NCBI GenBank assembly: GCA_965219445.1
Contig: CBDCNQ010000003.1
Coordinates: 224,001-288,000 of the forward strand
Direction of reading: 5' to 3'
DNA from: Longimicrobiales bacterium
Lineage (GTDB): Bacteria > Gemmatimonadota > Gemmatimonadetes > Longimicrobiales > Gaopeijiaceae
Length of the DNA: 64,000 nucleotides
The position numbers were made by a program, and so were the translations under genes. Below the pieces are notes generated by a model, which saw only the letters and a list, made by a program, of their open reading frames with translations, made no database searches and had not been told where the DNA came from. Below are positions 54,252-60,452 of this stretch, piece after piece; within the stretch, counting starts at the first letter, position 1, and each line of letters starts with the position of its first letter.

Positions 54252-55595
54252 TCAATAAGTTTCGTGTCTATGCGGACCCATCGCGAACGTGATTCGTAGC
54301 GTGAACTGCCCCGTCGTGTTTCCAGGATTTCCCAGGACATCGTACTCCGCCCTCAGCCGCACGTACTCGCTCTGCCAATACGTCAGGGCCGGGGAGACAA
54401 GCCAAGCCGACTCGGTGGGATCCTGCGGATTTTCTACCCACTCATACCGCCCGCCTGCAATCCACTGCTGAGAAAGTTTGACCTCGGCGAGTGACCAGAC
54501 ACCCAACACGGCCTCCGGCTCGGTGAGCCCCGGAACGGCTCCTGGATCCGAGAGCATGACTCCCCCCCGCACAACGACCCCGCTGTAGAGCGATCGCTCC
54601 GGCGGAGCCCAATTGAACGACATTTCAGCTCCGAACAGGCGATTACCGTACCGTCCGGCGAGATCCTCATAATCGCCAAACAGAGCACTCACGCCCACGT
54701 CCAGATCCGTTGATGCAGAGAGCTGCCAGAACGCGTTCATATGGCCCAGATAACTGAGTCCGTGGGACTCCCCGAACAGGATCTCATTACGACTCCGGGT
54801 GACCTCCACGGTGGCCTCATACGCTCCGGATCCCCCGGTCGGAAGCAGCCAATGAACCGAAGCCCCGTCTTGGGCCAAGGACTCCTCTCCAATAAAGGTG
54901 AGGTGCGGGAGTGACCGGCTCTGAAACTGAATCGCATGCGAGTGCCAACGGTTGAGCTGCCCGAATTGCTGGAAGAACCGCCCGACTTTGAGGCCGACAC
55001 CGCCCGGTAATGCGACCCACTCGACGTACCCCTCCTCCACCGCAACGCCGCCCCCTTCGCCTTCCTCTCCTCCGTCGGGAAACACTTCGATCCGACCCCC
55101 CTCCTCTTCTGCGGCAAGGAACACCCTGGCCCGGGTGAAGGGGTCGAGCGCCGATATGAACGCCAACTCGAACTCGCGAGGAATGAAGTTGTTGGTGCCT
55201 GGGTTCTCACTCTGGATGGACGCATAGACGTCCCCATTCAGGCTGATCTCCGGGTTCAATGCCTGCAGCGACCGCGAGCGACCAACGAACTCCTGGTCGC
55301 CCTGTGCCTGGGCCGTCGTGTCGGCTGCAGCACCTCCCGCGGCGGCCCGGGCCGCCGCCCGGAGCCGGGCGAGCTCGTCCGTCGTCTCCAACTGATCCCC
55401 TACCTCCGGCGCCGCCGGCCCACTCGCCACGACGGCCCCGAGGCTGTCGAACTGCGCCCGCAACAGCTCCAGTTCAGCCCGGAGAGAATCGAGCTGCGCG
55501 GACGGCACGTCCTGCGCATGCGCCCGGCCCGGGCCCACTGCGAGAGCCCCCATCAGGGCGAAAGCGCCGAAGCTTCCGGGTAATTTTTTTCGCAT
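54252..55595 (-). CDS. outer-membrane beta-barrel of the metal-uptake operon
   Basis: Signal peptide plus coiled coil, NPEIS, FG..N.WH.H, C-terminal G.H.H..Y. Confidence 0.8.
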   Translation of the reverse strand: MRKKLPGSFGAFALMGALAVGPGRAHAQDVPSAQLDSLRAELELLRAQFDSLGAVVASGPAAPEVGDQLETTDELARLRAAARAAAGGAAADTTAQAQGDQEFVGRSRSLQALNPEISLNGDVYASIQSENPGTNNFIPREFELAFISALDPFTRARVFLAAEEEGGRIEVFPDGGEEGEGGGVAVEEGYVEWVALPGGVGLKVGRFFQQFGQLNRWHSHAIQFQSRSLPHLTFIGEESLAQDGASVHWLLPTGGSGAYEATVEVTRSRNEILFGESHGLSYLGHMNAFWQLSASTDLDVGVSALFGDYEDLAGRYGNRLFGAEMSFNWAPPERSLYSGVVVRGGVMLSDPGAVPGLTEPEAVLGVWSLAEVKLSQQWIAGGRYEWVENPQDPTESAWLVSPALTYWQSEYVRLRAEYDVLGNPGNTTGQFTLRITFAMGPHRHETY

Positions 55596-55738
55596 GGTAC
55601 TCCTGAGAATCCATGTCCTCGGGCGTGTTCAACCAGAAGACACGAGCGGGAGAGCCCTGGAGCGATCCTTGGGTTAACCACCGAAATCGCTGGGCTCAAC
55701 GTGAAAGAGTGGCCCTCTCTGTTACGCGGAGGGCGTTC

Positions 55739-56074
55739 TCAGGGGGTGTGTGGTGGGGCCCTGGATTTCGTGCGGACGATACGGCGGAACTCGACCGGGA
55801 TATCGTGAGGGATCGAGACGGCCTCGCCCGGCGTAGGCGGAAACACCTGCAACGGAATCGATGAGTCCGTGGACCAGCCTTGTTTTCCGAACTGGATACA
55901 GAGGGTGTGGTCGTGGTGGGCGTGTGTGCACGCCTCGTGGTGCCCAGAGGCGATTACGGTTTCCGACCCCAGCAGTTCTCGATCCAGTGACGGGATGATC
56001 GCGCCCAGAGCGACCATCCAGACCGCCAAACCGGCATTGAAACGATCGCTCATGCGCCTTCTCATCCACAGCAT
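55739..56074 (-). CDS. RAPP-ending His/Cys-rich leader protein (DUF2946/CruR-like)
   Basis: Signal-like N-terminus, HHEACTHAHHDHTLC, terminal SRAPPHTP. Confidence 0.75.
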   Translation of the reverse strand: MLWMRRRMSDRFNAGLAVWMVALGAIIPSLDRELLGSETVIASGHHEACTHAHHDHTLCIQFGKQGWSTDSSIPLQVFPPTPGEAVSIPHDIPVEFRRIVRTKSRAPPHTP

Positions 56075-56081
56075 GCGTACA

Positions 56082-56110
56082 ACCTTAGGCTCAGCCCTAC
56101 AGGGTGTCAA
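56082..56110 (-). promoter_or_regulatory. sigma70-type promoter TTGACA-N17-TAAGGT
   Basis: -35 at 56110-56105, -10 at 56087-56082; ATG 7 nt downstream. Confidence 0.7.
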
Positions 56111-56300
56111 TCGGCCTCGTCCCCCAGCGAGGGCTTGCGGAGCTAGGATCAAAGGCATCATAGGGGCATGGCGACCGCTACCGGTACCGATCAGCAGCTA
56201 AGCAGCCCGAAGACGAAGAGGCGTTCTCCTCCGGGAGCGGGTGCGCGTTCATCATTATTCGCGCAAGCAAGCAACCCAACCCGTCCTACCCAAGAGGAGG

Positions 56301-57362
56301 ATGCCCATGGAGAGGTATATCGGACTCGACGCACACGCGTCGAGCTGCACGCTGGGGATTGTAGGCCCCAGCGGCAAGCGCTTGGGCTCGCAGGTGGTGG
56401 AGACGAACGCGCGGGCGCTGATCGAGGTGCTGCGAGGGATTCCGAGGAACCGGCACTTATGCCTGGAAGAAGGGACGCTGTCGGGGTGGCTGTACGAGGT
56501 GCTGAAGCCGCACGTGGAGGAGCTGACGGTGGCGGGGGTCGGCAAGAGCCGGGGCCCGAAGACCGACAAGCTGGACGCGTTTGCCCTGGCGGAGAAGCTG
56601 CGGATCGGATCACTGGAGACGACGGTCTACAAGAACCGGGGCCAGTTCAGGCGGCTGGGGGAACGGGCGAAGAGCTACGACTTCTTGGTCGGCGACACGG
56701 TGCGGGTGAAGAACCGGCTCAAGAGCGTGCTGCGCTCGAGAGGAGTGGCCTACGGCGCGGGGCGCTCGGTCTACTTAAAGCGCGACCGGGAGGAGTGGTT
56801 GGCCAAGCTGCCGGAAGCGAGCAGGACGACGGCCGGGTTGCTGTACGAGGAGCACGACGCACTCGTGGCATTGAGGGCGAAGGCCGAGAAGGCGTTGCTG
56901 GCGGAAGCACGCAAGCATCGAGAGTGGCATGTGCTGAAGACGTGCCCGGGTCTGGGTCCGATCCGGACGGCGGAGCTCCTGCCGGTGGTGGTGACGCCGT
57001 ACCGGTTCCAGAGCCGGAGCAGGTTCTGGGCGTACTGCGGACTGGGCGTCGTGATGCGGAGCTCGTCGGACTGGGTGCGGGGTCCGGGTGGGCGGTGGGT
57101 AAGGGAACCGGTACAGCAGACGCGGGGGCTGAATCGGAACTTCAACCACACGCTGAAGCGTGTGTTCAAGGGCGCAGCGACGACGGTGATCGGTCGGGCC
57201 GAGGACGAGCCCTTGTACCGCCACTACGAGCGACTCCTGGAGGGGGGCACGAAGCCGAATCTGGCGAAGCTGACGATCGCGCGTCAGCTCGCCTCGATCG
57301 TGCTAGCGGTGTGGCGCACGGGCGAAGCGTACGACCCCAAGAGACTGGAAGCGACGGAGTAA
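56301..57362 (+). CDS. IS110-family DEDD transposase/recombinase
   Basis: IGLDAH, LEE, KTDKLDA, PG.GP, AY.GL....RSS, AR.LA; GAGGAGG RBS. Confidence 0.96.
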   Translation: MPMERYIGLDAHASSCTLGIVGPSGKRLGSQVVETNARALIEVLRGIPRNRHLCLEEGTLSGWLYEVLKPHVEELTVAGVGKSRGPKTDKLDAFALAEKLRIGSLETTVYKNRGQFRRLGERAKSYDFLVGDTVRVKNRLKSVLRSRGVAYGAGRSVYLKRDREEWLAKLPEASRTTAGLLYEEHDALVALRAKAEKALLAEARKHREWHVLKTCPGLGPIRTAELLPVVVTPYRFQSRSRFWAYCGLGVVMRSSSDWVRGPGGRWVREPVQQTRGLNRNFNHTLKRVFKGAATTVIGRAEDEPLYRHYERLLEGGTKPNLAKLTIARQLASIVLAVWRTGEAYDPKRLEATE

Positions 57363-57439
57363 ACCGGGCCGGGATCGGCGAGCGTGGGGTCGAAAGCGGT
57401 CACAACATGGGGTCCGACGAAACGGAAGCGAACCGGTTA

Positions 57440-57571
57440 CAGGGGACAGCATCCATACACACCGTGGGCCGGGGCAGAGAGCCCAAGCCCCCACTCAAAG
57501 GCTATGCACCCCTGGAGAGCCGAACGAAGCGATGGGCCACAGAGTCCCAGATAGAAGGATGGTTCCCGCTC
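57440..57571 (+). ncRNA. bridge/seek-type guide RNA core (target- and donor-binding loops)
   Basis: Two hairpins whose internal loops carry TACACACC + TCAAAGG (target) and ATAGAAGG + GATG (donor). True transcript ends are unknown. Confidence 0.8.
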
Positions 57572-57847
57572 CAGAGCGGAGAACGCGACGGCTGTGAACG
57601 TCTTCCGGACTGCGATGCGGACCCTGCGAGCGCACCCCTCCCCACCCTGAGTCGTCGACCGGGCAATCCAAACCATGCGGACGCCGACGGTCAAAAAATG
57701 AGCCGACGGCGCGTGGGGAAGGTGCGTCTTGACCGCCAGCCCCATAGAAGGGTGTGTAAAAAAAGAGGCGACGTACCTTTCCGCTAGGTAGTAAGAAGTT
57801 AACCAGCGAATCCCGGGTGAGCGCCCGGGGGAAAGGAACGATGCCTC

Positions 57848-59092
57848 GTGAGGAAGAATATGGTGGGACCCGAGAGTGAGTCCAGCACGCCGACGTGGGA
57901 GTGCTTGGAAGCGCTGGTTCGTGAGAAGGCCCAGGAGATGGTCCAGCGGATTCTGGAGGAGGAAGTGACGGAGTTGCTCGGCCGGGAGAAGTCGGAGCGG
58001 AAGACGGTCGTAGACCCGGCGCCAGGCTACCGCAACGGCTACGGCAAGGCTCGGCGGCTGGCGATGAGCTCGGGCACGATCATGCTCCGACGGCCCCGGG
58101 TTCGAGGCATTGAGGAGCGGTTCGAGAGTCGGGTGTTGCCGTTGTTCGCACGACGGACGAAGGAGGTGGGTGCTCTGCTTCCGGAGCTGTATCTGCACGG
58201 GCTGGCGGAGGGAGACTTCGAGCTGGCGATGCGGGGCCTGCTGGGCGAGGGGGCCCCGTTGTCGAAGTCTTCGATTTGGCGGCTGCGGGCGGGATGGACA
58301 AGGAAATTCGAGGAATGGTCGAAGCGCTCGCTGGCCGACCGTGAGGTCGTCTACGTCTGGGCGGACGGGATCTACGTGAAGGCGGGGCTCGAGCGGGACA
58401 AGGCAGCGCTGCTGGTGGTTCTCGGTGCGATGCGAGATGGTACGAAGGAGGTGTTGGCCCTGAGATCGGGCTACCGAGAGTCGGTCGAGTCCTGGTCCGA
58501 GGTGTTGCGGGATCTGAAGGCACGCGGCATCGAGGCGCCCCGGCTTTTGATGGCGGACGGCAACGCGGCGATCTGGGGCGCAGTACGGCAGGTATGGCCT
58601 GAGGCGGGCGAGCAACGGTGCTGGAACCACAAGATGAGGAACGTGCTGGACCGGCTGCCTCAGCGGGAGCAGAGCGAGGCGAAGGACCTTCTCAGGACCG
58701 TGGTCTACGCACCGAGGCGGTCCGAGGCGCTGAAGGCCCGTGAGGCGTTCGCCAGGCGCTACAGACCGTGGTATCCGAAGGCGGTGGATGTACTCGAGGA
58801 CGACTGGGAGCGGATGGTGGCGTTCTACGACTTCCCCGAGGACCACTGGAAGCATCTACGCACGACGAACGTGGTCGAGAGCCCCTTTGCCGCAGTACGG
58901 CTCAGGACAACGGCGGCGAAGCGCTTCAAGCGGGTCGAGAGCGCTACGGCGCTGATCTGGAAGCTGCTCTTGGTGGCGGAGAAGCGCTTCAGAAGGCTCG
59001 ACGCTCCTCACCTCCTCAAGGACGTATTTGAAGGAAGAAAGTTCGAAGACGGAAAGCCCGTCTCAACCCAACAGCGGAAAAACGCCGCCTGA
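57848..59092 (+). CDS. IS256-family (mutator-type) transposase
   Basis: YRNGY, Y.WADG, ES..SW..L.DLK.RG, ADG, QRC.NH, LRTTN.VE. Confidence 0.96.
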   Translation: MRKNMVGPESESSTPTWECLEALVREKAQEMVQRILEEEVTELLGREKSERKTVVDPAPGYRNGYGKARRLAMSSGTIMLRRPRVRGIEERFESRVLPLFARRTKEVGALLPELYLHGLAEGDFELAMRGLLGEGAPLSKSSIWRLRAGWTRKFEEWSKRSLADREVVYVWADGIYVKAGLERDKAALLVVLGAMRDGTKEVLALRSGYRESVESWSEVLRDLKARGIEAPRLLMADGNAAIWGAVRQVWPEAGEQRCWNHKMRNVLDRLPQREQSEAKDLLRTVVYAPRRSEALKAREAFARRYRPWYPKAVDVLEDDWERMVAFYDFPEDHWKHLRTTNVVESPFAAVRLRTTAAKRFKRVESATALIWKLLLVAEKRFRRLDAPHLLKDVFEGRKFEDGKPVSTQQRKNAA

Positions 59093-59198
59093 AACATTTA
59101 CACACCTATTGACCCAACCTCGGGCTTGCGAACGCGATGGGTCTGCACAGAGGTTGTGTTCCCTCACGAGCAGGCTACCGAGAACCAGGAGTCGATCG

Positions 59199-60452
59199 AT
59201 GGACAACATCTCAAGACGTGCGATGTTAGGAGCCGCGGGAGGGCTGATCGCAGGGGGCCTGCTGAAGACTCAGGCCGATGCACTCACAGTGGGGGAGGCA
59301 GCCACCGGCCTGCAAACCGCACCGGCGGATCCCACGAAGATGCTCGGTGCGCCAACCAGCGTCCTCGGCCAACGGGCACCGGCGGAACAGCCCCGTCGCG
59401 TCATGGGCAGCCCGGCGACGACAGCATCCTCCAGAACCCCGATCGAGCAACTTCGGGGCATCATCACTCCGGCGGATCTCCACTTTGAGCGACACCACGC
59501 CGGCGTTCCAGCCATCGATCGGGATCGTTACGAACTCTTGATCCATGGGATGGTGGATCGGCCGATGACATTCACGCTCGACGACCTGATGCGCTTTCCC
59601 TCCGAGTCTCGGATTTGTTTCGTGGAATGCTCCGGGAACGGCGGCGCCGCCTATAACCGGAACGCCGCTCGGGAACGCACGCCCAGCCAGATCGATGGCC
59701 TGTTCAGTACGAGCGAATGGACCGGTGTGGCTCTGACCACTCTTCTGCGTGAAGTGGGCGTCAGCCGGGAGGCGAGTTGGTTGCTGGCGGAGGGTGGGGA
59801 TGCGGCACTCATGTCCCGCAGCATCCCGGTAGAGAAGGCTCTCGACGACGCCATGATCGCGTACGGACAGAACGGCGAGGCGATCCGTCCGGAGCAGGGC
59901 TTTCCCGCGCGGCTGCTGCTTCCCGGCTGGGAGGGCAACTCCCAAGTCAAATGGATCCGCCGCCTCGAGGCGTCCGACCGGCCCTCGATGACGCGCGACG
60001 AAACCTCCAAGTACACGGACCCCCTCGCCGACGGGACGGCGCGACAGTTCAGCCTGGTTATGGATGCGAAGTCGACCATCACGTTTCCCGCCTTCCCATT
60101 TGTACTTCCGGAGCGGGGCTGGTGGGAGATCAGCGGACTCGCGTGGAGCGGACGGGGCCGCATCGCTCGTGTGGAGGTGACGACGGACGGAGGGCGCACG
60201 TGGGTGCCCGCTCAACTTCAGGATCCGGTGCTCTCGAAGTGCGCCACGCGCTTCCGGCACATCTGGAACTGGGACGGCGGAGAGGCTCTTCTCATGAGCC
60301 GCGCGATCGACGAGACCGGCTACGTGCAGCCGGATCTGGAGACACAGATAGCGGCCCGAGGTGAGGGCAGCTCGTACCACTACAACACGATCCGGCCGTG
60401 GAAGATCGAAGCCGATGGGCGCGTGTTCTTCGCACAAGGAGGGGCGCAATGA
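59199..60452 (+). CDS. soxC: SoxC-like molybdoprotein (sulfite-oxidase family), Tat exported
   Basis: SRRAML, GIITP..LHFERHH.G, ECSGN, EQGFP.RL..PGWEG, SRA.DETGY.QP. Confidence 0.9.
   Translation: MDNISRRAMLGAAGGLIAGGLLKTQADALTVGEAATGLQTAPADPTKMLGAPTSVLGQRAPAEQPRRVMGSPATTASSRTPIEQLRGIITPADLHFERHHAGVPAIDRDRYELLIHGMVDRPMTFTLDDLMRFPSESRICFVECSGNGGAAYNRNAARERTPSQIDGLFSTSEWTGVALTTLLREVGVSREASWLLAEGGDAALMSRSIPVEKALDDAMIAYGQNGEAIRPEQGFPARLLLPGWEGNSQVKWIRRLEASDRPSMTRDETSKYTDPLADGTARQFSLVMDAKSTITFPAFPFVLPERGWWEISGLAWSGRGRIARVEVTTDGGRTWVPAQLQDPVLSKCATRFRHIWNWDGGEALLMSRAIDETGYVQPDLETQIAARGEGSSYHYNTIRPWKIEADGRVFFAQGGAQ

Follow-up and report, generated by a model that had tools for sequence, protein, structure and literature searches.

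How an IS1111-type insertion sequence (IS) came to lie within the terminal repeat of another insertion sequence, and whether it arrives there by rule or by accident, is the question raised by a 64,000-nucleotide stretch from a Longimicrobiales bacterium (assembly GCA_965219445.1, contig CBDCNQ010000003.1, positions 224,001 to 288,000). This whole stretch is the window, and coordinates refer to it unless a contig or locus is named. We conclude with considerable confidence that the IS1111-type element is inserted at the dinucleotide AG at base pairs (bp) 14-15 of the left inverted repeat of an IS256-family element, likely by means of a bridge/seekRNA matching bp 10-23 of that repeat. Its position, the copy census, the guide sequences and the covariation of guides with flanks were observed directly. 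The features of the locus are listed here, with lengths in amino acids (aa) and nucleotides (nt).

56131..56139, plus strand: left copy of the 9-bp IS256 target duplication GGGCTTGCG (empty site in three of four sequencing runs)
56140..56152, plus strand: outer 13 bp (bp 1-13) of the IS256 left inverted repeat, stranded by the insertion
56153..57748, plus strand: IS1111-type element, 1,596 bp, with core AG at 56153-56154 and 57749-57750
56160..56173, plus strand: left subterminal inverted repeat, imperfect, 7 bp from the end, at the same position in relatives
56307..57362, plus strand: DEDD recombinase/transposase, 351 aa (PF01548 and PF02371)
57441..57513, plus strand: bridge/seekRNA hairpin predicted to bind the target, internal loop of 13+13 nt
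57456..57463, plus strand: target guide TACACACC, the complement of the top strand at IS256 left-repeat bp 16-23
57495..57501, plus strand: target guide TCAAAGG, identical to left-repeat bp 10-16, pairing with the bottom strand
57519..57563, plus strand: predicted donor-binding loop, in which ATAGAAGG at 57551-57558 equals the element right end plus core
57729..57745, plus strand: right subterminal inverted repeat, with an outward-facing TTGACC (-35-like) at 57729-57734
57749..57760, plus strand: inner IS256 left repeat, bp 14-25, with the TGTAAA motif described in PMC7780238
57848..59092, plus strand: IS256-family DDE transposase, 414 aa, open frame
59097..59121, minus strand: IS256 right inverted repeat, intact
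59122..59130, plus strand: right copy of the 9-bp duplication

Architecture of the nested insertion

The 9-mer GGGCTTGCG brackets both transposase genes, and contigs of three of the four runs (X2, X7 and X9) skip 56131-59121 (2,991 bases), with nine letters fitting both sides. Because this empty site holds a single copy of the 9-mer, the pair is a true target duplication, as a preliminary description of the locus had proposed. The same description held that removal of the insert restores the IS256 element, and this is borne out. Excision of 1,596 bp yields GAGCTAGGATCAAAGGGTGTGTAAA, a rejoined 25-bp left repeat in which 20 of 25 positions agree with the reverse-complemented right repeat (hand count). 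The rebuilt IS256 measures 13+1373 = 1386 bp, as does a free copy in the same genome with a junction of equal length. Intact elements with the rejoined left end, suggested as a check, are present in related genomes, where the end is uninterrupted in 42 of 43 pattern matches in G003, three of three in G005 and one of three in G001.

The insert limits originally given, 56156-57751, describe the same event but are merely the rightmost drawing of it. AAGG is present at both IS1111 junctions and the element ends therefore slide by four bases, the possible drawings running from 56152-57747 through 56156-57751. In the left extension, the base that follows the first A varies among relatives, and does so jointly at both junctions (AG, AA or AC); we thus read the core as AG and the element as 56153-57748. 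This drawing fits the 7/3 end rule of IS1111 elements, in which 7-bp left and 3-bp right extensions lie beyond the subterminal repeats (PMC11187229).

Both partners can be assigned to families. The host transposase scores 295 bits against NF033543 (cut-off 150) and contains the DDE Mutator-type motifs WADG171, MADG235, CWNH258 (C/DxxH) and TNVVE340, and the host shares with ISCth4 and the IS256 family terminal repeats of about 25 bp with TGTAAA and an 8-9-bp duplication (PMC7780238). The recombinase of the inserted element contains GLD6-8, LEE53-55, TDKLD86-90, GLGP and MRSSS250-254, and its Pfam domains exceed the gathering scores (39.7 against 29 for PF01548, 32.4 against 21.3 for PF02371). 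It has no match among PDB sequences, its best plasmid matches are below 28% identity, and the closest named relatives of the element are Longimicrobiales. The non-coding stretches downstream (386 bp) and upstream (154 bp) of tnp follow the layout of the IS1111 group. Insertion occurred without target duplication, as removal leaves an intact repeat like that of the relatives. Across the joined ends, AGA plus AGGCATC gives 10 nt between the subterminal repeats, in agreement with the intact target length; distant relatives have perfect 8-bp subterminal repeats at the equivalent place. The joined ends also spell a promoter-like TTGACC-17-CATCAT, and a joined-end sequence is present at the relative locus L150. 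No circle joint of the element was among the joints listed from run contigs on the window, and a promoter scan of the linear element returned 0 sites.

Occupied repeats and the predicted guides

The genome that contains the window (G000) has 24 left ends of the IS1111 element, 23 of which directly follow an outer IS256 left repeat with the flank GAG[C/T/G]TAGGATCAAAG. The 24th lies elsewhere; its flank, ACTCAAAGG, agrees with the loop strand at 9/9 positions and forms six consecutive pairs with the other guide in a shifted register. None of 29 IS256 right repeats is interrupted, because there the AG lies one base further in and the match to the left guide is poor. A free copy of the 14-bp target TCAAAGGGTGTGTA was found nowhere in the genome, and the five free IS256 left repeats are all altered within it. 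Five other genomes contain 15 left ends between them, every one in the tip of an IS256 repeat (14 in left repeats, one in a right repeat). The proposal that the element parasitises IS256 ends is thus upheld, and the only copy in an unrelated target is the off-target one that still fits the guides.

The two target guides, TACACACC and TCAAAGG, jointly spell left-repeat bp 10-23 and are the same in all 22 full-length copies aligned from this genome. Both co-occur in 9.5e-5 of 200,000 shuffles of the non-coding region, a figure that applies to motif lengths picked after inspection. The top-strand complement (57456-57463) precedes the second match (57495-57501), as in IS1111 seekRNAs (PMC11187229). 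An alignment of the RNA (46 of 65 extracted segments) supports two hairpins with 26 pairs, ten of them with two-sided changes, and leaves both target guides unpaired in the 13+13 internal loop. The full non-coding region folds weakly better than shuffles (z -1.45), and an Rfam scan of 55500-59800 gave no match.

Covariation was scored on 156 relative loci, taken from the best 80 of 97 genome stretches (76 loci) and the best 80 of 358 metagenome stretches; ends were located by motif anchors, loci with no recognisable end or guide were left out, and the best of three registers was taken for both target guides. For the left guide, 4.12 of 5 variable positions are identical to the left flank (57 distinct pairs, against a mean of 2.12 and a maximum of 2.65 in 5,000 shuffles); for the right guide, 6.38 of 8 pair with the right flank (65 pairs, against a shuffled mean of 3.96 and a maximum of 4.6). 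The donor guide equals the right end in 72 of 78 relatives. Guides and flanks vary in concert among the relatives. On one RNA scaffold, the right-flank guide of relatives L011-L156 uses three pairing registers that are offset by single bases, and the 35 right-guide pairs scoring at least 7/8 divide among these as 5, 11 and 19.

Individual relatives illustrate both constancy and change of target. L092, with 69% transposase identity, has the same guides and is seated in an IS256 left repeat. L009, a single case, has both guides changed and is seated in an IS256 right repeat whose orthologous site is intact in G000. To the right of L009 the flank has ceased to be IS256, and the genome of L009 holds nine free right repeats. 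In a recombinase tree (48 sequences, at least 57% identity, after omission of six near-duplicates) IS256 guides occupy two separate branches, and their union in one clade is rejected (p-AU 7e-12), which means either two reprogrammings or guide transfer.

Most other members of the tree have a GGATAG-type guide. An IS91 transposase is nearby at six of 59 loci when the two longest flanking frames are scanned; at four of the six it lies on the minus strand and faces the right end. The six are L086, L097, L101, L110, L128 and L146, mostly with GGATAG-like guides. The target of these guides may be an IS91 end, perhaps the oriIS end. L091 has IS256-type guides and a GGATAG-type left flank, as if the guide had been altered after insertion, and three extra bases stand at the right junction of L002 (4443-4460), a further sign of imprecision there. 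A relative of 77% identity in G289 (L240, L242, L244-L246) has different guides and occupies another repeated target. A 40%-identity IS110 relative is present in 15 copies, many of them clustered, in G010 (L207, L219, L228) and G009 (L208). The four loci read abut GTTAG-type heptamers followed by short genes, an arrangement that resembles integron attC sites.

Several points weigh against the account of RNA-guided insertion. The recombinase scores 112.2 bits against the IS110 model NF033542 (E 2.8e-32), below the cut-off of 140, and by this model would be a divergent IS110/IS1111 member. The subterminal repeats show 12 matches and need two one-base gaps, where near-perfect repeats of 11-13 bp are expected of the IS1111 group. 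A second donor-guide arm was not identified with confidence in the RNA region, and the shuffles overstate the significance of the covariation, since the relatives are kin.

Copy histories, free ends and escape

The leading alternative, which we consider improbable, is that the 3-kb composite moves as a unit, the right repeat acting as donor and the 13-bp left tip as recipient, with the IS1111 element riding along. The IS256 transposase frame in the window is open, and ISCth4 junctions with a 14-bp left end, RE26(j6)L14, integrate, if more slowly (PMC7780238). Among the 19 composites with both ends read, seven have a perfect 8-9-bp duplication and one a near match, an outcome to be expected no less if IS256 came first. 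In ISCth4, integration was abolished when the outermost 14 bp of a pre-cut repeat were replaced (PMC7780238), and a clonal set of composites is lacking, as among the 12 with an identical IS256 body no two share an IS1111 haplotype string and the strings differ from the window copy at 0-30 positions. One haplotype string is shared by two copies, one of them inside an IS256 that differs from the window type at 154 positions.

The remaining 11 of the 19 composites have non-matching flanks, and several of these have their partners elsewhere, the halves of the duplication being swapped between distant copies (for example C2:416901 and C2:467795; C4:199262, C4:326814 and C5:654061). The swaps comprise one reciprocal pair (in inverted orientation) and at least two three-way cycles, pointing to rearrangements at repeats, or to mis-joins. 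This pattern favours a second and still less probable alternative, that occupancy arose mainly by homologous recombination or gene conversion among IS256 copies after few insertions. So do the mosaic appearance of the IS1111 haplotypes and the locus C5:1030810, where the tip and upstream DNA are 99% identical to G001 while the inner IS256 is only about 78% identical. Homology left of the junction, however, extends for only 13-16 bp, too little for conversion to carry the insert over into new surroundings; guided insertion is needed for the off-target copy as well as for the right-repeat copy at L009; and the guides track the flanks across relatives. Against an assembly or polishing artefact from two high-copy repeats, which the repeat-rich genome, homopolymer indels in some copies and one garbled copy (C5:124 kb) might bring to mind, stand the identical junction in five other genomes and a metagenome contig, the left junction and empty site in public-run contigs and the recurrence of two variant free junctions in contigs of two runs, and we regard its probability as negligible.

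Copy-by-copy insertion of the IS1111-type element into resident IS256 copies is the preferred history, and the diversity of the haplotype strings speaks for it. The mosaic haplotypes, some of which are separated by a single homopolymer column, tell against it to the extent that recombination blurs the copy history and weakens the argument that IS256 came first.

Other features of the copies were noted. Five IS1111 copies of G000 (C2:522582, C3:162178, C4:326814, C5:1611146 and C5:1629070) have in common the loss of one base near the recombinase gene's 3' end, which alters the last residues. At L238 in G000 (C4:1169767-1171670) the inner IS256 repeat is itself interrupted, only a few bases beyond the right end of the IS1111 element, by a group II intron of 1.9 kb (Rfam RF02001 and RF01998), which has a reverse-transcriptase-like frame and which we take to be of class IIC, giving three nested elements. 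This intron has 13 copies, most of them directly after hairpins. The 3' end of the IS1111-type element, with all or part of the guide RNA region, is tandemly repeated at C5:1612735-1613245 in G000, at L005:3962-5340 and at L244, the right end being joined to an internal site; these repeats resemble the ssr9 modules of ISPpu9 (PMC12288879). Departure of an IS256 with the parasite right end as a false tip was considered and no case was found, each of the 24 right ends having either a left end or a tandem repeat as its partner.

The five free left repeats of G000 deviate at bp 12-13 or 19. Their junctions read AGAAGG, GAAGG, AAGG and AGAGG in place of AAAGG, and in one case GTGAGTA; three of the five belong to IS256 bodies identical to that of the window. 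The AGAAGG and GAAGG junctions contain the final letters of the parasite right end (AGA or GA before the core), and we read them as probable scars of imprecise parasite loss. AGAAGG is present in contigs of runs X1 and X6 with 0 differences, reaching 24 letters past the junction and so short of the bar of 31, and GAAGG is a loose end in the same two runs, which are from one study and one of which may be the window's own sample. A polishing artefact was rejected for these two of the five odd junctions, as both recur in two runs.

A second genome, G004, suggests escape by change of core. Five occupied copies there reconstruct to an AG core, and ten free copies have AT (eight) or TA (two). The bodies compared (four occupied, nine free) differ at 1-30 of about 1,361 positions, and are thus one element sorted by core. 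These data suggest that IS256 escapes through an altered target. Two genomes, however, speak against a simple rule: in G003 one open-frame copy coexists with 46 free perfect targets, and in G001 six left ends coexist with five, so that target saturation is not general. A strict rule that every free copy has escaped was rejected on finding free perfect targets in G003, G001, G344 and G005. Core variants can also spread where no parasite was detected, as 37 of 40 free left ends in G289 have no perfect target and the 77%-identity IS1111 relative there has other guides and targets.

A wider reading, which we offer only tentatively, joins these observations as an RNA-guided arms race. The lineage would specialise in the ends of mobile elements, have been reprogrammed twice from IS91-type to IS256 left ends, and cap IS256 expansion by occupying every susceptible copy. 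IS256 would escape through two or three core bases, partly by imprecise parasite loss that leaves an immunising scar, and the parasite would respond by shifting its guide, for example to the right repeat.

Effect on the host and relation to known systems

By analogy with IS1111/IS110 work, the element would form a circle whose joined ends create the promoter TTGACC-17-CATCAT, and the recombinase-RNA complex would recombine circle and target at the AG core, creating no duplication. IS256 would insert first and then be invaded copy by copy. The guide extends over the greater part of the TGTAAA motif, which is conserved in the family and which the host is likely not free to change.

The insertion moves the tip (bp 1-13) 1.6 kb away from the subterminal transposase site (bp 14-25). 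In ISCth4, of the IS256 family, one domain contacts repeat bp 7-11 and another bp 14-25 (PMC7780238), and since the insertion splits these contact halves the end is likely dead as a donor and might serve as a recipient. The host IS256 is therefore likely immobilised, by analogy with ISCth4 and perhaps not fully, the slow integration of the RE26(j6)L14 junction weighing against complete immobilisation. The preliminary description had envisaged immobilisation until the parasite excises, in which case excision would free the host. For the IS1111 element ISEc11 a rejoined target was undetected after circle formation (PMC11187229), and the free junctions in G000 are altered, not restored. Excision of IS621 does restore the target, inefficiently (PMC13626964); in contrast, no restored target is present in the window's genome.

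The nearest precedents are IS4321 and IS5075 of the IS1111 group, which Partridge and Hall reportedly described in 2003 and which are said to target inverted repeats at the termini of Tn21-family transposons. The element described here resembles them in its IS1111 type, its subterminal repeats and the way in which it enters another mobile element's terminal repeat, at a fixed position and in a fixed orientation. It differs in that its host is a Mutator-type DDE element of copy-out/paste-in type with a 25-bp repeat, not a Tn21-family transposon, and in that it takes the left end only, is chromosomal and occupies 23 copies in one genome. With ISEc11, ISKpn4, ISPa11 and ISPst6 it shares a non-coding region downstream of tnp, two target matches of which the top-strand complement leads, a spacing of 10 nt between subterminal repeats once the ends are joined, and natural reprogramming among close relatives (PMC11187229); unlike these, it has a different target, a divergent transposase and a visible donor-binding loop. 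The IS621 bridge RNA likewise has separate target and donor loops, a dinucleotide core and guides that covary with targets, but lies upstream and goes with a CT core and REP targets (PMC11208160, PMC13626964). The ISCth4 account, in the part cited, describes no element interrupting the repeat (PMC7780238).

The mechanism is thus known, both from IS4321/IS5075 and from seek/bridge RNA, and the IS256-end target was not found in the literature searched. No report of an IS110/IS1111 insertion in IS256 ends was found at the level of titles and abstracts, a search that had ISfinder, TnPedia, subscription journals and bioRxiv supplements, which may hold an example, outside its scope. "IS256" is absent from the main text and seven searchable supplements of PMC11208160 and from bioRxiv 2026.08.14.744561.

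What the present case adds is a whole-genome census, scarred and core-changed free copies, and guide switches. One guide pair in one genome provides a natural and well-populated test set for RNA-guided target choice, in which 23 left repeats are taken, 29 right repeats and five altered left repeats are spared, and a single off-target site is tolerated. The free copies with scars are relevant to the question of what an IS1111 element leaves behind, be it a restored target or an altered one, or whether it departs at all. Since the insertion parts the two halves of an IS256-family end that the transposase binds, the system also offers a test of whether one insertion sequence limits the copy number of another.

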